Made by a program: the position numbers and the translations under genes | Assembly (NCBI GenBank): GCA_001566965.1 | Contig: LSNW01000036.1 | Location: forward strand, 1-52,978 | Source: Methylothermaceae bacteria B42 | Lineage (GTDB): Bacteria; Pseudomonadota; Gammaproteobacteria; Methylococcales; Methylothermaceae | Direction of reading: 5' to 3' | Length of the DNA: 52,978 nucleotides | Notes under the pieces: model-generated | Told to the model about the DNA's origin: nothing | Database searches by the model: none | Seen by the model: the letters and a program-made list of their open reading frames with translations, nothing else | Part shown: positions 991 to 47,644 of the stretch, piece by piece | Numbering within the stretch: the first letter of the stretch is position 1 | Layout of the letters: every line of letters starts with the position of its first letter

Positions 991-1791
991 TCAGCTTTCT
1001 TCTAAACAGCGATAAAGTAACTCTTTTACATTTTGCGGTTCAAAGGGTTTATCGCAAATGGCCGATACCCCTGCTTGTTGCACGCTGCTCAGGCTGGCTG
1101 TATTTTGTTCGCTGGTGACCATGATGATGGGCAGAAAAGGGTTGTTCAGCTCACGGCGGATAAAACAGGTCAGTTCCCTACCGTCCATTTCCGGCATGTT
1201 GTAGTCGGTGATAATCAAGTCAAATTCTTGTTGACTCAATATTTCCGCGGCTTCTTTGCCATCTTTGGCTTCGGTGATATTTTCAATGCCCATATCGTTG
1301 AGCACCCGGTGAATGTGTTTGCGAGCCATGCGGCTATCATCCACCAGCAATATGCGTAGGTTTTCAATATCGTAAGTTTCTAGTTGAATCTCTTCGGGAT
1401 CTAAATACTGTAAAGTCGTTCTCAAGGCGCGAGTCAAGTCTTTACTATCGAAAGGCTTGGGTAGAATAGCAACAACTCCTGCTTGCCTAACAGGATCTAA
1501 GAGTTCAATATGAGATTCGCTGGAAACCAGCAAAAATGGCAGTTGATGCAGAGAGGGATCGTTGCGGATTTTAGTCAATAGTTGCACAGCAGTCATATCG
1601 GGCAGATACATGCTGCTAATCACTAGATCCGGGACAAAACTGCTCAGTAACTGAAGCGTTTCCTGGCCGCTTCTACTGATTTCTACTTTATCAACCCCCT
1701 GTTCATGCAGCCGATTGAGTATAATTTTGGCTTGCGAGGTGGAGGGTTCCACCAGCAGTAACGCTAAATCTTCAATAGCAAGCGATTCCAC
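991..1791 (-). CDS. Response regulator made only of two tandem CheY-like receiver (REC) domains; no output domain
   Basis: 266 aa. The second REC is canonical (LLVDDSRMARK ... DLIITDYNMPEMDG ... KPF). The first REC keeps the fold motifs (LPDMT, KPF) but has Ser where the phospho-acceptor Asp should be (DLVISSMYLP) and lacks the N-terminal acidic pair. Confidence 0.75.
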   Translation of the reverse strand: MESLAIEDLALLLVEPSTSQAKIILNRLHEQGVDKVEISRSGQETLQLLSSFVPDLVISSMYLPDMTAVQLLTKIRNDPSLHQLPFLLVSSESHIELLDPVRQAGVVAILPKPFDSKDLTRALRTTLQYLDPEEIQLETYDIENLRILLVDDSRMARKHIHRVLNDMGIENITEAKDGKEAAEILSQQEFDLIITDYNMPEMDGRELTCFIRRELNNPFLPIIMVTSEQNTASLSSVQQAGVSAICDKPFEPQNVKELLYRCLEES

Positions 1792-1862
1792 GAATTGCTC
1801 CTGAAAACAGTCATTTCATTAATTCAAGCATAGGCGATTTGCTTCCAAGCACAAGGGTTCCC

Positions 1863-2543
1863 ATGTCGATTGTTTCTTTAGTGGAAGTCAGCAAATCCTA
1901 TCTTGAAGGCGATGACAGACACTGGATATTTAAAAGCATCTCAATGGCAATTGAAGCCGGTGAATTTATTGTTTTACTGGGAAGGAGCGGTTCCGGGAAG
2001 TCCACTTTACTCAATTTGATAGCCGGTATTGATGCGCCCGATTCCGGCAAAATCACTGTCAGTGGCAACGAATTAAATCAGCTCTCAGAAACGAGTCGCA
2101 CGCTGTTTAGGCGCCGTCATATAGGTTTTGTTTTTCAGTCATTTAATTTGATTCCTACTTTAACGGTGAAAGAAAACATTCTTTTCCCCTTAGAACTTAA
2201 TAATCTGCTAGATAATATTTCGCAGGAAGAAACCGCAGAATTACTCAACCGCTTAAGGCTGCAAGGCCGCGAGAATACCTTCCCGGACCGGCTTTCAGGC
2301 GGGGAACAGCAACGGGTGGCGATTGCCCGGGCTTTGATCCATCAACCGGATATTGTGCTGGCGGACGAACCTACTGGCAATTTGGATCTGGAAACCGGCC
2401 GGGAAGTGCTGAATCTATTAGACGAGCTTGTTCGCGAACGGGGAAAAACCTTAATTATGGCAACCCACAGCCAGGAAGTGATTGGCATGGCTGACCGTAT
2501 CCTGACGCTTCGCCACGGCCAGTTAGAATCTGCTGGCCAATGA
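1863..2543 (+). CDS. ABC transporter ATP-binding protein (MacB/LolD/YbbA type)
   Basis: Walker A GRSGSGKST, Q-loop, ABC signature LSGGEQQRVAIARAL, Walker B IVLADEPT. The ORF-track start at 1839 is TTG; the first ATG (MSIVSLVEV) is at 1863. The 3' end overlaps the permease gene by 4 nt. Confidence 0.85.
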   Translation: MSIVSLVEVSKSYLEGDDRHWIFKSISMAIEAGEFIVLLGRSGSGKSTLLNLIAGIDAPDSGKITVSGNELNQLSETSRTLFRRRHIGFVFQSFNLIPTLTVKENILFPLELNNLLDNISQEETAELLNRLRLQGRENTFPDRLSGGEQQRVAIARALIHQPDIVLADEPTGNLDLETGREVLNLLDELVRERGKTLIMATHSQEVIGMADRILTLRHGQLESAGQ

Positions 2544-5059
2544 CTTCGCTTTCCTTTCTGGCAGGATTTCGTTTTCTCAAGCATCATCCATGGCAAATTT
2601 CGCTGACGCTTTTTGGCGTCGTACTGGGCGTGGCGGTAGTGATCGCCATAGATTTGGCGAAAACAAGCGCGTTGGTTTCATTCGATCGGGCCACTGCCGC
2701 GGTTCTAGGCAAAGCCACCCACAGAATCACTGCAACTGACGGCCTGGATGAGAACCTGTATCGAAAACTGTGCTTGGGGGGTATTCGCAAGATCAAGCCC
2801 GTGGTGGAAGGTTATATCCAGGCGCAAGGTGACTCACTCAAGTTGATTGGCATTGATGCCTTGGCGGAAGCCGGATTTGATTCTCTTTGGACGCAAACAT
2901 CGGGACAACAAGGATTCCAGTTGTGGCGGCGGATAATTACAGAGCCAGGCGCTGTGGCGATGGGGAAATCGCTCGCAGAAAAGTTGAACTTGAAATTGGG
3001 CGATACATTTAAAATCAAAGCCGGCGAAAAAGATCAGAAGCTGCATCTGGTTGGTATCCTTAATCCCAGCAATGCGCTTCAGCGTCAGGCACTGAAAAGT
3101 TCGGTAATTACCGATATTGCAACTGCCCAGGAGATCTTTGACAAAATTGGCCTGCTGACAGCCATTGATGTGATAGTGGATGAAAATCAGCCGGAAGCTG
3201 AAATATTAAAGTTGTTGCCGAAAAACGCCGATTGGATGACGCGGGAGGCCGGTAAAACCTCCGCACGGCAAATGACCCGGGCTTTCTATATCAATCTGAC
3301 GGCATTGAGCCTGCTTTCCTTATTGGTCGGCATGTTTTTGATATACAACAGCGTCAGTTTTCTTGCTGTTCAACGCCGCAAATTATTCGGTATCTTCCGG
3401 GTGTTGGGTCTCACCCACCAGCAAATTCTTTTAGGCGTACTGTTGGAAGCAGCTATGTTGGGTATGCTAGGAAGTTTTCTGGGCGTTTTGTCAGGGATTG
3501 GACTGGGCCGGGTCCTCTTGGATTTACTGGCCAAAACGCTCAATGACGTGTATTTCCCTATGCCGGGGGCTGAATTGTCGCTGCAACCATTTTCCCTGAT
3601 GAAAGGATTCGTTTTGGGATTGGGCGCCACGCTGCTGGCCGCGGCCAAACCGGCTCTGGAGTCCTCCCGGGTCAACCCGGTGACCGTGATGGCTCGTTCG
3701 GTACTGGAACATCAGGCCCGAAGGCGTGCGCGGGCTGCTTTTGTGGCTGGTATCGTTATGGTGGGTACTGGGTTGATGATGCTTGCCGCCACCTCTAAAC
3801 TCACGGCCGGTTTTGTTGCCCTGACTTTGGTCGTGCTCGGCTGTGCCCTATTTATTCCATTATTGACCTTGTTGCTTATGCAAGGCTTGCAAAACCTGGG
3901 TGGAAAGCTATTTGGCATTCTTGGGCGAATGCCGCCCCGCTCGGTTTCTGTTTCCCTCAGCAGAACGGGCGTGGCAACCGCGGCGTTGATGGTGGCAATG
4001 GCCACGACCATAGGAATGAGCTTGATGATCCACAGTTTCCGTCATTCGGTTGCCCTATGGTTGGAACGACGCCTGGATGCCGATTTCTATCTTTATACCT
4101 CTGGCCGCGATGTCACCCGGCGTCCGCAACTTCCCCTCGAATTTGCACGGGAAATCCTGAAAGTACCTGGCGTGGCGGGCATTGGCAGTGTCCGTTATTT
4201 ACGTCAACCCACGGATCATGGATTTTTACGGATCAACGCCTACCAAATTACTCCTCAATCCTTTGCTATCTTCCAATTCAAGAAAAAGGCAGTAGCGGAC
4301 GTATGGGCCGCCTTTCAAAATGGCTGGGTAATTGTTTCCGAGGCGTATGCTTCACTCCATGGCGTAGAAGCCGGCGATACCATCCAGTTGCCGACGGCCA
4401 ACGGCATGCAACCGTTTAAAGTGGCGGCTGTTTTCATCGATTACAATGCGGGCCGGGGGATTGTGGCGATGGATCGCAAGATTTACAACCAGTATTGGCA
4501 TGACGATCAAGTTTCCACCTATTGGATTTATTTGAAAGACGGCGCTGATTCGGACGCCGTTACTGATAATCTGCGTAACCTCAAGCCTGCGGGATATTTG
4601 CAGATCAGCGATAACCGGAGCTTGCTGCGCCTGTCTCTGCGGATTTTCGATCAAGCCTTTGCCGTGACGACATTATTGCGATGGTTGACCACTGGCGTGG
4701 CGTTTGTTGGTGTGTTCAGCGCGCTGCTTGCCTTGCAGCTGGAGCGAGTCCGGGAAATGGGAATCCTCCGGGCCTTGGGATTGACGCCGCGGCAACTGTG
4801 GGGACAAATTTTGGCGGAAACCGCCTGTTTGGGGATACTGGCTGGCGTACTGGCTATTCCGGTGGGTATCACCATGGGTTGGCTTTTGATTGAAGTAATC
4901 AATCACCGGGCCTTTGGCTGGACGTTGGAGATGACCATCGACGGTTCTATCCTTGTGGGCGGGGTAGCATTGGCGGTGACGGCCGCTGTGCTGGCAGGTT
5001 TGTATCCCGCCTGGAAGATGTCGCGGACTTCTCCCGCCGAGGCATTGCGATACGAGTGA
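2540..5059 (+). CDS. ABC transporter permease of the FtsX/MacB-like family (YbbP-like, duplicated FtsX modules)
   Basis: 839 aa. It has two blocks of 4 TM helices separated by a large soluble region, as in FtsX-domain permeases. It is translationally coupled to the upstream ATPase. Confidence 0.8.
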   Translation: MTSLSFLAGFRFLKHHPWQISLTLFGVVLGVAVVIAIDLAKTSALVSFDRATAAVLGKATHRITATDGLDENLYRKLCLGGIRKIKPVVEGYIQAQGDSLKLIGIDALAEAGFDSLWTQTSGQQGFQLWRRIITEPGAVAMGKSLAEKLNLKLGDTFKIKAGEKDQKLHLVGILNPSNALQRQALKSSVITDIATAQEIFDKIGLLTAIDVIVDENQPEAEILKLLPKNADWMTREAGKTSARQMTRAFYINLTALSLLSLLVGMFLIYNSVSFLAVQRRKLFGIFRVLGLTHQQILLGVLLEAAMLGMLGSFLGVLSGIGLGRVLLDLLAKTLNDVYFPMPGAELSLQPFSLMKGFVLGLGATLLAAAKPALESSRVNPVTVMARSVLEHQARRRARAAFVAGIVMVGTGLMMLAATSKLTAGFVALTLVVLGCALFIPLLTLLLMQGLQNLGGKLFGILGRMPPRSVSVSLSRTGVATAALMVAMATTIGMSLMIHSFRHSVALWLERRLDADFYLYTSGRDVTRRPQLPLEFAREILKVPGVAGIGSVRYLRQPTDHGFLRINAYQITPQSFAIFQFKKKAVADVWAAFQNGWVIVSEAYASLHGVEAGDTIQLPTANGMQPFKVAAVFIDYNAGRGIVAMDRKIYNQYWHDDQVSTYWIYLKDGADSDAVTDNLRNLKPAGYLQISDNRSLLRLSLRIFDQAFAVTTLLRWLTTGVAFVGVFSALLALQLERVREMGILRALGLTPRQLWGQILAETACLGILAGVLAIPVGITMGWLLIEVINHRAFGWTLEMTIDGSILVGGVALAVTAAVLAGLYPAWKMSRTSPAEALRYE

Positions 5060-5154: not shown

Positions 5155-6303
5155 ATGCCTAAAACACGATTATTTTCAACTGCCCTGTTTTTTTGGGCGA
5201 TAGCGCTTTTTGCTTCCCTAACGTTTGCGGTGGTTCCCACCCCGCCTAAACTGGCGGCCGAAAGCTATATCCTAACGGATTTTCACAGTGGCACGGTCCT
5301 GGCCGAACAGAATGCGGATGAAAAACTGCCGCCCGCCAGTTTGACCAAGATCATGACGGTCTATGTGGTGTTTAAAGAGTTGAAGCAAGGCAATTTAAAG
5401 CTGGATGAACTTGTCACCGTGAGTGAAAAAGCCTGGCGGGCGCCGGGTTCGCGGATGTTTATTGAAGTCAACAAGCAAGTTCCTGTCGAAGATTTACTCA
5501 AAGGGGTGATTATTCAATCGGGTAATGATGCCAGCATTGCCTTGGCGGAACATATCGCCGGCGATGAAAGCACCTTTGCCGAGCTGATGAACCATCACGC
5601 CAAAGTTCTGGGTCTAACCAATACCAACTATGTCAATAGTACCGGCCTTCCCGATGAAAATCATTACACAACCGCCAAGGATCTCGCTCGTCTAACCCGG
5701 GCGTTAATAGCAGAATTTCCTGAGTACTATGGCTGGTTTTCCATTAAGGAATTCACCTACAACGGGATTACCCAGAAAAACCGCAATCTTCTGCTATGGC
5801 GCGATCCCACTGTGGATGGCGTGAAAACCGGCCATACGGAGGAAGCAGGTTATTGTCTGGTGGCTTCGGCCAAGCGTGATGACATGCGCTTGATTTCCGC
5901 AGTGATGCGAACCGCCAGCGAGAATGCACGGGCTAGCGCCTCCCAAGCCCTCCTCAATTATGGTTTCCGTTTTTTTACCACGCAAAAGGTTCACGATAAC
6001 GGCAAACCTTTGACTGAAGTCAGGGTGTATAAAGGAAAAACGGAAACCCTGCCCCTCGGGGTGACAGAACCAGTATATGTTACATTGCCAAAAGGCCAAG
6101 AGAAAAATCTAGTGACCGAACTGGTGGTGGAACCCTGGCCAAGCGCGCCCGTGGAAAAAGGCCAAAATCTGGGTAAAGTGATATTGAAAGTTGAAGACAA
6201 GGTGATTGCTGAAAGGCCATTAATTGCCTTGGAATCCATCGAAGAAGGTGGTTTGATCCGCCAGTGGATGGACGAGGCCTGGCTGATGATCAAGCAGTGG
6301 TAA
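5155..6303 (+). CDS. dacA: D-alanyl-D-alanine carboxypeptidase (class A low-MW PBP, PBP5/6 family)
   Basis: Signal peptide, then the S11 motifs SLTK (SxxK), SGND (SxN) and KTGHT (KTG). 382 aa. It lies in the conserved dacA-ybeD-lipB-lipA context. Confidence 0.88.
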   Translation: MPKTRLFSTALFFWAIALFASLTFAVVPTPPKLAAESYILTDFHSGTVLAEQNADEKLPPASLTKIMTVYVVFKELKQGNLKLDELVTVSEKAWRAPGSRMFIEVNKQVPVEDLLKGVIIQSGNDASIALAEHIAGDESTFAELMNHHAKVLGLTNTNYVNSTGLPDENHYTTAKDLARLTRALIAEFPEYYGWFSIKEFTYNGITQKNRNLLLWRDPTVDGVKTGHTEEAGYCLVASAKRDDMRLISAVMRTASENARASASQALLNYGFRFFTTQKVHDNGKPLTEVRVYKGKTETLPLGVTEPVYVTLPKGQEKNLVTELVVEPWPSAPVEKGQNLGKVILKVEDKVIAERPLIALESIEEGGLIRQWMDEAWLMIKQW

Positions 6304-7154
6304 TGCCGATGCACGATCCACTGGTTTATTTAAATGGTGAGTTTATTCCTCTGAGCGAGGCCACGGTTTCCGTCCTTGACCGCGGTTTTCTGTTTGGCGA
6401 TGGGGTTTATGAAGTTATTCCGGTCTACGGCGGCAAGCCTTTTCGACTCGATGACCATTTGCGGCGCTTGGATAATAGCTTATCGGGCATTCGTCTGCCT
6501 CCTCCCCTGACCCATGCCCAGTGGCAAGAAATCATCCACGGACTGCTGCAAGGTCAGGGCGATCAATCGGTCTATCTGCAAGTCACCCGGGGCGTGGCCC
6601 CCAAACGGGATCATGCTTTTCCCAAAGACGGTCAGCCTACGGTACTGGTGATGGTCAATCCCATGGAAACGGGCGAACCGCAAGCGGTAAAAGCCATTCT
6701 GGTTGATGACATCCGCTGGCAGTGGTGTCATATCAAAGCCATTACCCTGCTGGCCAATGTGCTATTGCGCCAGCAGGCCATTGACCGAGGCTGTCATGAG
6801 GCCATATTGGTGCGCGATGGCAAGGTAACCGAGGGCGCTGCAAGTAATGTATTCGCGGTGATGGATGGGGTGCTGGTGACGCCCCCAAAAGGCCCCCACC
6901 TACTTCCGGGCATTACCCGTGACGTTGTGCTGGAGCTGGCGGGAGCGAACGGAATCGCATTTCGGGAAGAGGAAATCACGCCGGATGACCTTAAACAGGC
7001 TGAAGAAATTTGGCTCACCAGTTCCACCCGGGAACTGCTTCCCGTTATCGCTTTGGATGATCAACCCGTGGGCAAGGGAAGACCCGGGCCACTGTGGGAA
7101 AAAATGCTTGGCATTTTCCAGGGCTATAAGCAATCACTCCGCAGCGGATCATGA
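6303..7154 (+). CDS. Class IV (fold type IV) PLP-dependent aminotransferase; D-amino-acid aminotransferase or PabC-like
   Basis: About 284 aa with EGAASNVF (the E-x-x-x-S-N-hF class-IV motif), the catalytic Lys region and the typical length. The start was taken at ATG 6303 (MPMHDPLVYLNGEF), which overlaps the dacA stop, rather than the upstream alternative start. Confidence 0.7.
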   Translation: MPMHDPLVYLNGEFIPLSEATVSVLDRGFLFGDGVYEVIPVYGGKPFRLDDHLRRLDNSLSGIRLPPPLTHAQWQEIIHGLLQGQGDQSVYLQVTRGVAPKRDHAFPKDGQPTVLVMVNPMETGEPQAVKAILVDDIRWQWCHIKAITLLANVLLRQQAIDRGCHEAILVRDGKVTEGAASNVFAVMDGVLVTPPKGPHLLPGITRDVVLELAGANGIAFREEEITPDDLKQAEEIWLTSSTRELLPVIALDDQPVGKGRPGPLWEKMLGIFQGYKQSLRSGS

Positions 7155-44040: not shown

Positions 44041-44354
44041 AGTCTTCTCCTTGCTTGAAACAAAATTCAAATGGCAAAAGCCCCACGCTCAGCCCGGCCC
44101 AATGGTTTGTGAAACCCAGGAGGATCAAGGGTGGGAGGGATATTGTCCCTCCGGGCCATGAACCCGCTGGAATCAAACCCGCCACCGGGGCGGTCTGGAC
44201 GCTGATTCTTGCCATGGTTTGGCAGTCTCCGGCTTCCGCGGTGTGGGGCTTCCGTTTGGCTGCCCCGCGCCGGGAAACTTGAAGGCTTCCATTCCACGGC
44301 GCGAATCCGGGGTTTTTACCGTATGCCCTTGCGGGAGGAAAGAACGCCTTTCGG

Positions 44355-44431
44355 CTGGTAACGCTAGCCGGATTCGAACCGGCTACCCATCGATTACAGA
44401 TCGATTGCTCTACCAGAATGAGCTATAGCGT
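44355..44431 (-). tRNA. tRNA gene with encoded CCA and non-canonical features: A1-U72 and A2-U71 in the acceptor, and anticodon loop UCUGUAA (anticodon UGU, Thr-like, with C at position 33)
   Basis: 77-nt perfect cloverleaf on the minus strand: acceptor AACGCTA/TAGCGTT, D-stem GCTC/GAGC, anticodon stem ATCGA/TCGAT, T-stem GCCGG/CCGGC with T-loop TTCGAAT, discriminator A, then CCA. Isotype is uncertain because U33 is replaced by C. The palindromic ATCGAT makes the loop register the only ambiguity. Confidence 0.8.
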
Positions 44432-44457
44432 TGGTCATGAGATGGATTCGAACCATC
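44432..44457 (-). ncRNA. tRNA 3'-half-like fragment (T-arm plus 3' acceptor strand) abutting the 5' end of the tRNA gene
   Basis: The minus strand reads GATGG-TTCGAAT-CCATC-TCATGAC-C, a consensus T-arm followed by a 7-nt acceptor strand and discriminator. No complementary 5' acceptor strand exists upstream, so it is not a complete tRNA. Confidence 0.5.
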
Positions 44458-44633
44458 GTAACCACGTCGGGAAGACGCTATCCATTCCGTTCTGCCAGAT
44501 ACGCCCAGACTCAGTGAGTCCGGCGTCAGGCTGGTATCCAGAACCAGCACCGCAAGACAGCCCGGAAATGAATTCCTGGGGGGTATCCCCCCACCAGCAG
44601 GCGGCACTGGCATTCGGCCGCCACCGGTATGTT

Positions 44634-45863
44634 TTATCCTTTGACACAAACCACCTGTTTCAGTGTGTGGACAATTTCCACCAAGTCCCGCTGGGCGGCC
44701 ATCACTTGTTCAATGGGTTTGTAAGCCGCTGGGGTTTCATCAATGACGCCCTCGTCCTTGCGGCATTCCACGCCGTCGGTGGCCAGCAGGTGCTGTTCCA
44801 GGGTGATTGCCTTTTTGGCCTCGGTGCGGGACATGACCCGGCCCGCGCCGTGACTGCAGCTGCAAAAGCTTTCCTCATTGCCCAGGCCCCGGACGATAAA
44901 AGATTTGGCTCCCATGCTGCCGGGGATGATGCCCATTTCTCCCTTTCTGGCGCTGACCGCGCCCTTGCGGGTTACCCAGACCCCCTGGCCATAATGCTGC
45001 TCCTTGCGGATGTAGTTGTGGTGGCAGTTCACCGCTTCCAGCGCCGATTCGAAAGTTCGTCCCAAGGCTTTGGCGATGACTTGCAGGGTTCTTCTCATCA
45101 TGACCTCCCGGTTGACCCGGGCGAAATCCTGTGCCCAGGCCACCGCGGCTACATAGTCAGTGAAGTGTTCGCTGCCTTCGGGCAAATAAGCCAGATCCTG
45201 GGCGGGAAGGTGAATGAACCAGCGCTCCATTTCTTTCTTCGCCTTTTCAATGAAATGGTTGCCTATGGCATTACCAACCCCTCTTGAACCACTGTGCAGC
45301 ATTACCCAAACTTGCTGGTTTTCATCCAGACACACTTCGATAAAATGATTGCCGGTACCTAGTGTTCCCAGATGTTTGATATTATTGGTGTTTTTTATGA
45401 ATCCATGCTTTTCCGTCAGGCGATTGAATCCCTCGGCCAATGGTTGCCAGGCGTCGGCTACATCCTCTGGCACCTCGCCCCAACTTCCCTTGTCCCGTGC
45501 GCCGCGCCGTAATTTTTTGGAGCGGCCGTGGGGGACCGCCTTTTCAATGGCGCTGCGCATGTTACCCAGATGATCTGGCAGATCACTGGTGGTAAGGGAA
45601 GTTTTTACCGCCATCATCCCGCATCCCAAGTCAACGCCAACCGCAGCGGGAATCACCGCGCCCACCGTGGGAATCACGCTTCCGATAGTCGCGCCTTTGC
45701 CGACGTGGACATCAGGCATGGCCGCCACCCAGCGGTGGATAAAAGGCATCCGGGTAAGATTCAACAGCTGTTGTCTGGTTTTATCGTCGCATGGCACGCC
45801 CCGGGTCCAGGATTTCACCGGAACCTGGGAATAGGCTTCATGCATTACTTCGTAACTGACCAT
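44634..45863 (-). CDS. rtcB: RNA-splicing ligase RtcB (3'-phosphate/5'-hydroxyl RNA ligase)
   Basis: 409 aa with RtcB-family His/Cys metal-ligand motifs (...DVHVGKGATIGSV..., CHHNY, GTGNHFIEV, and the SCSHGAGR region around the nucleophilic His). RBS AGGAGA. No rtcA is adjacent. Confidence 0.92.
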   Translation of the reverse strand: MVSYEVMHEAYSQVPVKSWTRGVPCDDKTRQQLLNLTRMPFIHRWVAAMPDVHVGKGATIGSVIPTVGAVIPAAVGVDLGCGMMAVKTSLTTSDLPDHLGNMRSAIEKAVPHGRSKKLRRGARDKGSWGEVPEDVADAWQPLAEGFNRLTEKHGFIKNTNNIKHLGTLGTGNHFIEVCLDENQQVWVMLHSGSRGVGNAIGNHFIEKAKKEMERWFIHLPAQDLAYLPEGSEHFTDYVAAVAWAQDFARVNREVMMRRTLQVIAKALGRTFESALEAVNCHHNYIRKEQHYGQGVWVTRKGAVSARKGEMGIIPGSMGAKSFIVRGLGNEESFCSCSHGAGRVMSRTEAKKAITLEQHLLATDGVECRKDEGVIDETPAAYKPIEQVMAAQRDLVEIVHTLKQVVCVKG

Positions 45864-45903: not shown

Positions 45904-45919
45904 AGCATGGAGCGTGCCA
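45904..45919 (-). promoter_or_regulatory. Sigma54 (-24/-12) promoter upstream of rtcB
   Basis: The minus strand reads TGGCACGCTCCATGCT, with the GG and GC dinucleotides spaced exactly as in the consensus TGGCACG-N4-TTGCW. It lies ~40 nt upstream of the rtcB start and is divergent from rtcR. Confidence 0.7.
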
Positions 45920-46054
45920 AAAATTATTCAGGACCTATATTTCTTGTATGTTATTGAAACTGCGTTATTTTCTCCTGAAAAAGAAATTATGCTGGCAACC
46001 TGGATTCCAAACAGATAACATTTTCTGTATATAATTTTATAAATAGTTATAAAA

Positions 46055-47644
46055 ATGAATAATACCGTTGTAAGTATTTTGGGCCAGCGTCTGGATAATG
46101 CTGGATACGGCCAAAAACGCTGGTTGCGTTGGCGTCCTACTTTATCGCTACTCATGCACCATGAGTTTCCCGTGGACGAACTGGTCTTGATCCACCATCG
46201 GGAGGAACAACGCCTGGCGGATCTCACCATGAATGATGTCTTGCACATCTGTCCCGGCTTGAAGGTGACACCCTATGTTACCGACTTTCATGATCCCTGG
46301 GATTTTGAGCAGGTCTATGGCCAGCTCCATGATTTTGCCCACGACTATCCTTTCGATCCTGAGCGCCGCCAATATTATTTCCATATCACTACTGGCACCC
46401 ATGTTGCCCAGATATGTGTGTATTTGCTGACCGAGGCGAATTATTTCCCGGGCAAATTAATTCAAACCGCCCCGAGTAAAACCGGCCCTGACGGCGTTTA
46501 TCAGATTATCGACCTGGATTTATCCCGTTATGACAAGATCGCTTCCCGTTTCCGCCGGGAAGAACAGGAGGCTATTCGCCATCTCAAAAGCGGAATCGAG
46601 ACCCGCAACCGTGGATATAACCAGATGATTACGGAAATAGAGCAGGTGGCGGTACGGTCCACGGCGCCGATTTTCCTGACCGGTCCCACTGGCGTTGGCA
46701 AATCCCACCTGGCCAGGAAAATCTATGAATTAAAGCGGCAACGGGGCCAACTCACGGGACGTTTTGTGGAAGTTAATTGCGCCACCTTGCGCGGCGATAA
46801 TGCCATGTCTACTTTGTTTGGCCATGTGAAGGGCGCTTATACCGGGGCCGCCCGAGACCGGGCCGGATTGTTAATGGAAGCAGACGGCGGTTTGCTGTTT
46901 TTGGACGAAATCGGCGAGCTGGGGCTGGACGAGCAAGCCATGTTGTTGCGCGCCATTGAGGACCGGGTATTTACACCCCTCGGTTCGGATCGTGAGGTCA
47001 GCAGTCATTTTCAGTTGATTGCGGGCACCAACCGGGATTTGCAAGAGCGGATAAGCCAGGGACTGTTTCGGGAGGATTTGTTGGCCCGGATAAACTTGTG
47101 GCGCTACAGTTTGCCCAGCCTGCGGGAAAGATCAGAAGATATCGAACCCAATATTGAGTTTGAATTGCAACGCTTTGCCCGGGAACGGAACCAGAAGGTC
47201 AGCTTCAACCGCGCCGCCAAAGCCAAATATCTCGCCTTTGCCTTAAGCAACGAGGCCTTGTGGCGGGCTAACTTCCGGGATTTGAACGCCAGCATCACTC
47301 GCATGGCCACCCTGGCCACCAGTGGCAGAATCAGCGAGGAAATTGTGGAAAACGAACTTGCCCGCTTGCGGGCGGATTGGCAGGGTGGCGTCAGGCTTGA
47401 TGAAGACTTTGATTCCCTCGGGGCGTTGTTAAAAAAGGATGTTTATGAGCAGCTTGATCTGTTCGAGCGGCTTCAACTTGCCCAGGTTATCCGTATCTGC
47501 CAGCAAAGCCACAGCCTGGCCGACGCCGGCCGGAAATTGTTTGACAAAAGCCGCTTGCGCAGAAAAGCTGGTAATGATTCACAGCGTCTTCGGGCGTATC
47601 TCCAAAAATACGGTTTAGTATTTAAAGACTTGCAGCTAAGCTAG
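46055..47644 (+). CDS. rtcR: Sigma54-dependent transcriptional activator RtcR (N-terminal CARF domain, AAA+ sigma54-interaction domain, C-terminal HTH)
   Basis: 529 aa. The N-terminal ~190 aa resemble the RtcR CARF domain. AAA+ Walker A GPTGVGKS, GAFTGA-like loop GAYTGA, and ESELFGH-type region (STLFGH) are present. C-terminal HTH. Divergent from sigma54-promoted rtcB. Confidence 0.92.
   Translation: MNNTVVSILGQRLDNAGYGQKRWLRWRPTLSLLMHHEFPVDELVLIHHREEQRLADLTMNDVLHICPGLKVTPYVTDFHDPWDFEQVYGQLHDFAHDYPFDPERRQYYFHITTGTHVAQICVYLLTEANYFPGKLIQTAPSKTGPDGVYQIIDLDLSRYDKIASRFRREEQEAIRHLKSGIETRNRGYNQMITEIEQVAVRSTAPIFLTGPTGVGKSHLARKIYELKRQRGQLTGRFVEVNCATLRGDNAMSTLFGHVKGAYTGAARDRAGLLMEADGGLLFLDEIGELGLDEQAMLLRAIEDRVFTPLGSDREVSSHFQLIAGTNRDLQERISQGLFREDLLARINLWRYSLPSLRERSEDIEPNIEFELQRFARERNQKVSFNRAAKAKYLAFALSNEALWRANFRDLNASITRMATLATSGRISEEIVENELARLRADWQGGVRLDEDFDSLGALLKKDVYEQLDLFERLQLAQVIRICQQSHSLADAGRKLFDKSRLRRKAGNDSQRLRAYLQKYGLVFKDLQLS

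Follow-up and report, generated by a model that had tools for sequence, protein, structure and literature searches.

Between the RNA ligase gene rtcB and a Band-7 gene of Methylothermaceae bacteria B42 lies a sequence that folds into a complete transfer RNA (tRNA) cloverleaf, and whether it is a tRNA of translation or a part of the RNA repair operon in which it stands is the question raised by this locus. The DNA analyzed is contig LSNW01000036.1 of assembly GCA_001566965.1, a stretch of 52,978 nucleotides (nt) that is called the window throughout. The cloverleaf is on the minus strand and is designated unit 2; a tRNA-like fragment abutting its 5′ end is designated unit 1. Our answer is that the element belongs to the predicted b7a-tRNA class, most likely as a non-decoding tRNA mimic that works with a Band-7 scaffold, and we assign this reading a probability of about 0.7.

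ARAGORN finds a sole tRNA in the whole window, at nt 44356-44432 of the minus strand, with the anticodon TGT. The Rfam tRNA model matches nt 44359-44432 with 64.1 bits (E 1e-11) and is the only Rfam family to reach its gathering score in the 53-kb window. The family model R1, a covariance model of 37 orthologous units, scores unit 2 at 86.9 bits. The minus strand reads AACGCUA UA GCUC AUUCUGGUA GAGC A AUCGA UCUGUAA UCGAU GGGUA GCCGG UUCGAAU CCGGC UAGCGUU A CCA. The discriminator is A73, and the CCA is encoded in the DNA. The anticodon loop is the seven-base UCUGUAA, which carries the anticodon UGU and has C33, whereas a canonical tRNA-Thr(UGU) has U33 in its seven-base loop. In E. coli, the identity rules of threonyl-tRNA synthetase (ThrRS) specify the acceptor pairs G1-C72 and C2-G71; the sequence of unit 2 has A1-U72 and A2-U71 in their place. 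A preliminary description of this DNA, made from the sequence without database searches, had reported the 77-nt cloverleaf with its CCA, A1-U72/A2-U71 acceptor, C33 loop and UGU anticodon, and ARAGORN, Rfam and the reading of the sequence all agree with it. Its suspicion that this is no ordinary tRNA-Thr is also borne out, by C33, by the missing ThrRS pairs, and by the lack of anticodon conservation among orthologues described below.

The same description did not recognize the arrangement as described, yet a class of this kind had been predicted in 2016. According to the discussion in Wang et al. (bioRxiv 10.1101/312249), Burroughs and Aravind (Nucleic Acids Res 2016;44:8525) predicted the b7a-tRNA as a tRNA-like non-coding RNA next to a Band-7 gene in the RtcB neighborhood, with a proposed tRNA-like help for RNA ligation. 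The preprint also regards it as perhaps functionally redundant with YrlA. We identify the window element as a b7a-tRNA because the order rtcB, tRNA-like RNA, Band-7 matches this published description. The strong tRNA likeness is seen with ARAGORN, with the Rfam score and in the covariation of the 37 units. The Band-7 gene is 315 nt downstream of unit 2 on the same strand, a linkage found in 47 of 47 tabulated Band-7-positive relatives. The RtcB neighborhood is represented by rtcB, 202 nt upstream of unit 2, together with a divergent rtcR and a sigma-54 promoter. Nothing in the window element conflicts with this description. The idea of a Yrl-like scaffold, one of the options raised in the preliminary description, is the published hypothesis for the class. 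Among the papers searched, the 2018 preprint was the only one to mention the b7a-tRNA element.

Which gene the element accompanies was examined in 80 loci encoding RtcB relatives with 65-76% identity, designated here by L numbers. All are from Pseudomonadota, mostly Gammaproteobacteria (Thiothrix, Methylococcales, Cellvibrio, Kangiellaceae). The tRNA-like genes were sought with ARAGORN and model R1, and Band-7 homologues with tblastn. In each of the 47 tabulated Band-7-positive loci, one or more R1 matches lie upstream of Band-7 and on its strand. The match is located 200-460 nt (in two loci about 800 nt) upstream of the first-estimate Band-7 start, a position that precedes the true ATG by about 30 nt. 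L064, outside the 47 tabulated loci, also has an R1 match and Band-7. The linkage persists where rtcA stands between rtcB and the module (L009, L032, L043, L059, L076), where unrelated genes intervene (L004, L011, L042), and where Band-7 is on the other side of rtcB (L044, L078). No comparable R1 match was found in the Band-7-negative loci save L063, with several of the negatives being truncated contigs that can not be judged. The element travels with Band-7 because every tabulated Band-7-positive locus carries the match and the negatives do not; it is tied to Band-7 rather than to rtcB as such. The preliminary description had raised the possibility that the tRNA travels with rtcB and did not include the Band-7 gene, and the comparison of the 80 loci revises it on this point. 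In L063 (nt 1125-4864), the rtcB relative lies within an array of 18 apparently ordinary tRNA genes without Band-7, a different arrangement that is possibly phage-like.

The 37 orthologous tRNA-like units were aligned, and sliding the 3′ partner by 1-3 columns served as the control. In the cloverleaf 95.0% of the cells are paired, compared with 26-38% after sliding, and compensatory changes were seen at 15 of the 21 pairs. Covariation is present in the acceptor, anticodon and T stems; the four pairs of the D-stem are the same throughout. Invariant in the 37 units are U8, A9, the D-stem, A14, G18, the UAGAGC side of the D-arm, G46, GGUUC, A58 and C61-C62. The anticodon and the G1 end present a different picture. 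U33 is found in 25 of the 37 units, the entropy of position 34 is 1.95 bits and near maximal, and position 35 is A or U in 32. G1 occurs in 2 units and A72 in 29; in 19 of 36 units positions 1 and 72 do not pair, and CCA is encoded in 6 of the 37. ARAGORN assigned more than 12 different anticodons, several loops have six bases, and the anticodon loop of L022 unit 2 contains a 15-nt expansion. The orthologous anticodons include CAU, GUU, UUU, AAG, ACU, ACG, AAU, AUU and UUG, and the anticodon conservation of a tRNA-Thr is absent. Close relatives differ mainly in the loop, as in L005 versus L015, L033 versus L037 and the window versus L002. Four of the seven positions of the window loop UCUGUAA are different from CUCAUAA, the loop of its closest relatives such as L002, with no difference in the anticodon stem or the T-arm.

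This alignment shows selection to act on the core and elbow of the tRNA, with neither the anticodon nor the G1 end preserved. The invariance of the D-arm and T-loop, the covarying stems and the drift of the loop therefore suggest an RNA that is recognized through its L-shape and elbow rather than its anticodon. Candidate readers may be tRNA-processing and modification enzymes, the Band-7 protein, or RtcB.

The protein gene that accompanies the element encodes 390 residues. Its mechanical open reading frame (ORF) starts at TTG 44070, and we place the start at ATG 44040, behind AAGGAG (nt 44047-44052), because all relatives share the N-terminus from that methionine, because many relatives have in-frame stops just upstream, and because an identical 390-residue database protein exists. 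That record is a hypothetical protein of "Methylothermaceae bacteria B42". NCBI names the relatives "slipin family protein", and no specific family for the protein was found in NCBIfam or PADLOC. A database search gives more than 6000 Band-7 homologues with an E value of 1e-10 or lower. In the AlphaFold2 model, with a predicted local distance difference test score (pLDDT) of 83, about residues 1-125 form a beta-rich N-terminal region, ahead of the SPFH domain and a 40-residue helix. The order of an SPFH domain and then a long helix is that of the cage-forming scaffolds stomatin, HflK/C, flotillin and major vault protein. Stomatin, HflK/C and prohibitin are the top structural matches by score, and major vault protein gives the longest alignments. 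No hydrophobic anchor was seen at the N-terminus on reading the sequence without a prediction tool. We predict a soluble protein whose SPFH domain and long helix resemble those of cage- or ring-forming SPFH proteins.

The drift of the loop has also to be considered from the side of toxins. The element might act as bait or sentinel, with anticodon nucleases cutting or binding the mimic, which would protect real tRNAs or yield 2′,3′-cyclic-phosphate fragments for the CARF domain of RtcR; the fast-changing loop would then track the local toxin repertoire. The targets of anticodon nucleases include the loops of Met/fMet, Asn and Lys tRNAs, and common loops of the family resemble them: CUCAUAA is close to Met/fMet, CUGUUAA to Asn and xUUUUAx to Lys. 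The concentration of variation at positions 33-35, with identical stems in the close relatives compared above, is in line with such a role. However, relaxed constraint would explain the loop variation equally, and loops of six bases or of greatly expanded length resemble no tRNA. The mimic is within the induced operon, while a sensor would require basal expression. The strict linkage to Band-7 and the two flanking RNA domains described next are left unexplained. A sentinel or decoy was also among the options of the preliminary description; we consider a bait or sentinel unlikely.

The cloverleaf is embedded in further structured RNA. In the 593 nt that separate rtcB from Band-7, folding is far better than in shuffled sequences, with z scores of -3.8 and -4.8 for the two flanks. 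Upstream of the units is a conserved 5′ element, present in the window and in 46 of 47 aligned Band-7-positive relatives. It consists in order of (A/U)GCGG, hairpin 1 (GCUGGU..ACCAGC, nt 44530-44548, with a loop start of the GGUUC type), CUGAC, and hairpin 2 (nt 44498-44527) with an invariant UA bulge. In a subset of 29 sequences 93.5% of its cells are paired, as against 22-44% after sliding, and compensatory change is seen at 13 of 16 pairs. One of these pairs divides the subset, without exception, into 15 sequences with GC and 14 with AU. Two tetraloop hairpins directly follow the CCA of unit 2 (Table 1). Equivalent hairpins come after unit 2 in relatives, and distant loci add a T-arm-like hairpin after the second. 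Beyond them lies a conserved 3′ domain of about 250 nt, closed by helix P1, in which GGUAAAAACCCC (nt 44309-44320) pairs with GGGGCUUUUGCC (nt 44073-44084). P1 is backed by RNAalifold on nine spacers and by the minimum-free-energy fold of the window. The domain encloses a side branch together with a long irregular rod, which is made up of P3-P4, a conserved GGGUYUG/CAYAAA internal loop and P5. The core model of the domain, R2, matches window nt 44069-44208 with 85.2 bits. In its seed alignment 88.5% of the cells are paired versus 35-38% after sliding, and 24 of the 29 pairs are compensatory. R2 matches the 18 seed loci and 9 further ones, and only between the tRNA-like units and Band-7.

Neither the 5′ element nor the 3′ domain has a match in Rfam 15. 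A scan at Rfam gathering scores of the window, 13 Band-7-positive and 13 Band-7-negative loci returned tRNA only and no YrlA; at a permissive E value, the surroundings of the element gave, besides YrlA at 24 bits, only matches at chance level. A stretch within the 3′ domain, GGCGGGUUUGAUUCCAGC (nt 44166-44185, minus strand), was flagged by the tRNA model and weakly by transfer-messenger RNA (tmRNA) models as T-arm-like. Covariation places it in the long-range helices of the domain, and it was rejected as a T-arm. The apparent "terminator-like" hairpin at nt 44179-44193 is likewise one strand of a covarying long-range helix. We also considered that P1 might sequester the Shine-Dalgarno sequence of Band-7, which was ruled out once the start was fixed at ATG 44040, with AAGGAG further downstream.

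The position of these structures could also be read as that of a function in cis: the units would be RNase P and 3′ processing punctuation between the rtcB and Band-7 messages, and the flanks a leader controlling stability or translation of the Band-7 mRNA. The fixed position directly upstream of Band-7 agrees with this, as does a structured spacer of 200-460 nt whose end is about 30-45 nt short of the ribosome-binding site of Band-7. Modules that stand alone begin at a sigma-54 promoter and extend into Band-7, and tandem units that abut and share CCA/A1 junctions look like the precursors of polycistronic tRNAs. Punctuation, however, needs neither an invariant D-arm and T-loop nor a conserved U36-A37-A38 over such divergence, and the closing helix of the 3′ domain leaves the ribosome-binding site free. 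A cis signal could moreover coexist with a role in trans. As the main explanation it is quite unlikely, more so than the bait.

That unit 2 is a functional, chargeable tRNA, either a housekeeping tRNA-Thr(UGU) or a stress-induced toxin-resistant replacement, is very improbable. The general tRNA model scores it as high as real tRNAs, its cloverleaf is complete, and the seven-base loop, G35-U36, A73 and CCA are all in place; the ARAGORN and Rfam results, the abutting units and the encoded CCA are what an ordinary polycistronic tRNA would give. It differs from an ordinary tRNA-Thr(UGU) in C33 in place of the near-universal U33 and in A1-U72 where textbook rules for ThrRS ask for G1-C72 with C2-G71. 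The orthologous elements have many different or impossible anticodons. The family differs from ordinary tRNAs in its rare G1, its frequent 1-72 mismatch and its tie to one protein gene: the element tracks Band-7, not the tRNA set of the genome. A ribotoxin-resistant replacement tRNA, proposed as one option in the preliminary description, is disfavored because the anticodon is not conserved among the orthologous elements.

Several points weigh against our assignment of the element as a non-decoding mimic of the b7a-tRNA class. The window copy is among the most tRNA-like members, with a perfect seven-pair acceptor, A73, CCA, a seven-base loop and G35-U36, and its sequence may be compatible with charging by ThrRS or another synthetase. 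U36, A37 and A38 are fairly conserved (31, 27 and 31 of the 37 units), so the anticodon loop is under some constraint. U36-A37 is the context of N6-threonylcarbamoyladenosine (t6A) modification in tRNAs reading ANN codons, and the conservation of U36-A37-A38 may be a trace of ancestry, or a modification enzyme may recognize these bases. Binding of the RNA by the Band-7 protein is argued from gene linkage. The match to the class was made to a secondary summary and not to the original 2016 definition, and according to that summary the existence of b7a-tRNA was still experimentally unvalidated in 2018 (bioRxiv 10.1101/312249).

The fragment directly 5′ of unit 2 reads GAUGG UUCGAAU CCAUC UCAUGAC C (nt 44433-44457), a T-arm and an acceptor 3′ strand. 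R1 matches its T-arm only, with 12.8 bits (E 7e-4 in a 701-nt search). Window unit 1 has neither a 5′ acceptor strand nor a D-arm, and no 7/7 complement to UCAUGAC, with G-U allowed, was found anywhere in the spacer between rtcB and Band-7. The preliminary description was therefore right in finding no 5′ partner. Its interpretation as a tRNA 3′-half as such does not hold, because 25 related loci have two abutting R1 matches with a complete unit in tandem at the position of the fragment; the "half" reads as a decayed first tRNA-like unit. In full tandem pairs unit 1 typically ends in ..CC, and the A of its CCA doubles as nucleotide 1 of unit 2. The degradation of unit 1 varies among the nearest relatives of the window. 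L002 unit 1 scores 20.7 bits and retains a GUCAUUA/UAAUGAC acceptor; L027 unit 1 scores 33.7 bits, and a four-pair stem capped by a tetraloop replaces its anticodon arm; L007 unit 1 scores 35.8 bits, and L022 unit 1 gives a T-arm match only. The T-arm and 3′ strand (GAUGGUUCGAAUCCAUC-UaAUGAC) are retained in the window, L002 and L022, and the 3′ strand is slightly diverged to UAACGAU in L027. In the relatives sharing this T-arm RtcB is only 73-76% identical to that of the window. The T-arm of the decayed unit thus seems to be still maintained.

Integrase-mediated insertion classically leaves a tRNA 3′ fragment beside a tRNA gene, but the explanation of the fragment as a duplicated attachment-site remnant beside a target regenerated by a mobile element can be set aside as extremely improbable, for the fragment (GAUGG..CCAUC UCAUGAC) is no copy of the 3′ half of unit 2 (GCCGG..CCGGC UAGCGUU), no integrase is nearby and the neighbors are housekeeping genes, and the fragment T-arm is conserved at the same place in those diverged relatives.

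Additional partial modules occur in relatives. A third tRNA-like module is seen in L041, L043, L046, L059, L067 and others, where a small hairpin and then a perfect T-arm, GGGGUUCGAAUCCCC, are located 20-60 nt past unit 2 and before the 3′ domain; this extra module after unit 2 is absent from the window.

The preliminary description compared the locus with the Salmonella Y RNAs, and the comparison is apt insofar as both have a tRNA-mimicking RNA in an RtcR/sigma-54 rtcB operon. In Salmonella, YrlA occurs with Rsr/Ro60 in the rsr-yrlBA-rtcBA operon (Chen et al. 2014, PMC4201824; Hughes et al. 2020, PMC7790460). The conserved parts of the RNA are in both the D-arm (UAGCUCA..GGUAGAGC) and the T-loop, and the RNA is paired with the gene of a putative scaffold protein. 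The two differ in that YrlA is permuted, with a T-arm, closed acceptor hairpin and D-arm on a Ro-binding stem, whereas the window element is a normal complete cloverleaf, and in that its protein partner is Band-7, not Ro. The covariance-model check proposed in the preliminary description came out for tRNA (64.1 bits) and not for YrlA: the Rfam YrlA model (RF02553) gives 24.0 bits (E 0.016) at nt 44376-44485, against a gathering threshold of 69. This weak match consists of the fragment T-arm and the D-arm of unit 2, with the acceptor-like hairpin flagged as non-pairing. We rejected a YrlA identity on this score, which is driven by the T-arm and D-arm and has the tandem-tRNA pattern that Chen et al. 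(2014, PMC4201824) discarded as false positives. The same authors asked for a Rsr/Ro60 (TROVE) gene within about 4 kb; no TROVE domain was found in the neighboring genes or in 16 of the 17 window ORFs of at least 330 residues that were scanned.

In L022 the piece upstream of the full unit (nt 6293-6356) has a T-arm, a closed seven-pair hairpin UAAUGAC-UCAC-GUCAUUA and a D-arm-like hairpin, which is the permuted order of YrlA. It was tried as a YrlA-type module and rejected, as the Rfam YrlA model does not recognize it.

The eukaryotic vault particle, composed of major vault protein, vault RNA and TEP1, offers another comparison, with its SPFH-like shoulder domain, long helix and small structured non-coding RNA. 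The window system differs in being known from sequence only and in having stomatin, HflK/C and prohibitin as the top structural scores. Vault RNAs are not tRNA-shaped cloverleaves, and the window locus has no TEP1 or PARP partners.

The genes and signals around the element are listed in Table 1. Besides its Pfam matches, rtcR scores 776 bits against the NCBIfam equivalog RNA_repair_RtcR, for which the cut-off is 650.

Table 1. Features of the rtc locus of the window, from rtcR to Band-7
Feature	Position (nt)	Strand	Evidence or detail
rtcR, CARF and sigma-54 AAA+ activator	46055-47644	plus, divergent	Pfam RtcR 244.7 bits, Sigma54_activat 163.8 bits
Candidate sigma-54 promoter TGGCACgctccaTGCT (TGGCAC-gctcc-ATGCT, GG-N10-GC)	45904-45919	minus	pattern search and sequence reading
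rtcB, RNA 3′-phosphate/2′,3′-cyclic phosphate ligase	44634-45863	minus, co-directional with unit 2	Pfam RtcB 438.6 bits, full profile
Conserved 5′ element, two hairpins	44498-44556	minus	alignment and covariation
First tRNA-like unit, apparently decayed	44433-44478	minus	T-arm match to R1; alignment with unit 1 of L002, L022, L027, L007
Small hairpin of unit 1	44464-44478	minus	
T-arm of unit 1, GAUGG-UUCGAAU-CCAUC	44441-44457	minus	R1 match
Acceptor 3′ strand of unit 1, UCAUGAC plus C	44433-44440	minus	
Unit 2, probable b7a-tRNA, complete cloverleaf, 77 nt	44356-44432	minus	ARAGORN, Rfam tRNA, model R1, covariation
Tetraloop hairpin GCC-GAAA-GGC	44346-44355	minus	directly after CCA
Tetraloop hairpin CCC-GCAA-GGG	44326-44335	minus	
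Conserved 3′ domain, about 250 nt	44073-44320	minus	R2 model, covariation, RNAalifold
Band-7/SPFH ("slipin") protein, 390 residues	42868-44040	minus	Pfam Band_7 118.8 bits

The sigma-54 site is about 40 nt upstream of the rtcB ATG, and its agreement with the consensus suggests that it functions as the operon promoter. Simple scans of the minus strand between rtcB and unit 2 found no convincing sigma-70-like promoter, sigma-54-like site or terminator. The operon context drawn in the preliminary description, with a co-directional rtcB, no promoter or terminator evident between it and the tRNA, and an operon under RtcR/sigma-54 control, is consistent with these scans. In L004, L011 and L042, the three loci with unrelated genes between the module and rtcB, a perfect TGGCAC-N5-TTGC is located 118-175 nt upstream of unit 1. 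From the L004 and L011 alignments we place the putative transcription start of these two loci no more than about 15 nt from the 5′ element. With sigma-54 sites directly upstream of the 5′ element in the standalone loci, the module thus seems to be transcribed from sigma-54 promoters as a unit of its own, beginning with the 5′ element and continuing into Band-7.

The activating ligands of RtcR are tRNA fragments that carry cyclic-phosphate ends (Hughes et al. 2020, PMC7790460). In Acinetobacter baumannii on tigecycline, rtcB and a hypothetical gene directly downstream rise 252-fold together (PMC7652931), and the rtc locus of Pseudomonas aeruginosa has an embedded SPFH gene (PMC13086221, PMC8619066); with respect to the b7a-tRNA element both reports are indirect leads.

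For a non-decoding b7a-tRNA we consider the following path the most likely. RtcR would activate the sigma-54 promoter upstream of rtcB and give one transcript, in the order rtcB, two-hairpin 5′ element, unit 1 remnant, complete unit, 3′ domain of about 250 nt, and Band-7. RNase P and 3′ processing would release or expose the tRNA-like module, which, alone or with the flanking domains, would assemble with an oligomeric Band-7 scaffold. The RNA-Band-7 complex might then serve, as cofactor or platform, when damaged tRNA-like substrates are handled in an RtcB-dependent way, a parallel to YrlA/Y RNA with Ro60 (Rsr) in Salmonella-type rtc operons. We infer the co-transcription, the processing, the lack of aminoacylation, the binding to Band-7 and the repair role of the element from its sequence and surroundings.

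A wider model would join several of these lines. The b7a-tRNA would be just the recognizable module of a much larger multidomain RNA of about 0.5-0.6 kb, so far undescribed as such and comprising the two-hairpin 5′ element, one or two units, the extra hairpin/T-arm modules and the rod-like 3′ domain of about 250 nt. Made from the RtcR/sigma-54 promoter, it would assemble with a soluble, vault-like SPFH cage as a bacterial RNA-repair particle, its drifting anticodon loop would be a toxin-facing bait, and the tandem units would be a possible source of the permuted YrlA fold. We offer this model tentatively and regard it as rather unlikely to hold in its entirety, though less so than the bait taken by itself.

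RtcB/RtcR operons are widespread, and their natural substrates and cofactors in bacteria are poorly defined. The b7a-tRNA has so far been a purely computational prediction; the window and 47 related loci make it a concrete, alignable family with strong covariation, and the two further conserved RNA domains together with the sigma-54 start point define a likely transcript. This fuller anatomy, with tandem units, a decaying unit 1, two covarying flanking domains, the sigma-54 start and the drift at positions 33-35, may be new when measured against the summary in the preprint. The Band-7 branch of RNA repair can be tested in the candidate cultivable carriers Methylomicrobium (M. lacus), Cellvibrio (C. 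fibrivorans) and Thiothrix, and possibly in Pseudomonas aeruginosa, which has the SPFH gene in its rtc locus (PMC13086221). Automatic annotation will mislabel such elements as tRNA-Thr, tRNA-Met, tRNA-Asn and the like.

Two minor features of the locus are worth recording. A 106-residue ORF (nt 45928-46248, minus strand) spans the rtcR-rtcB intergenic region, overlaps the rtcR start and has no Pfam match; it is unlikely to be a gene. Two GC-rich hairpins (nt 44578-44628, minus strand), including GGGGGG-AUA-CCCCCC, come immediately after the rtcB stop codon, have no following U-tract and are not conserved in relatives; they may act as a stabilizer or a weak attenuator.

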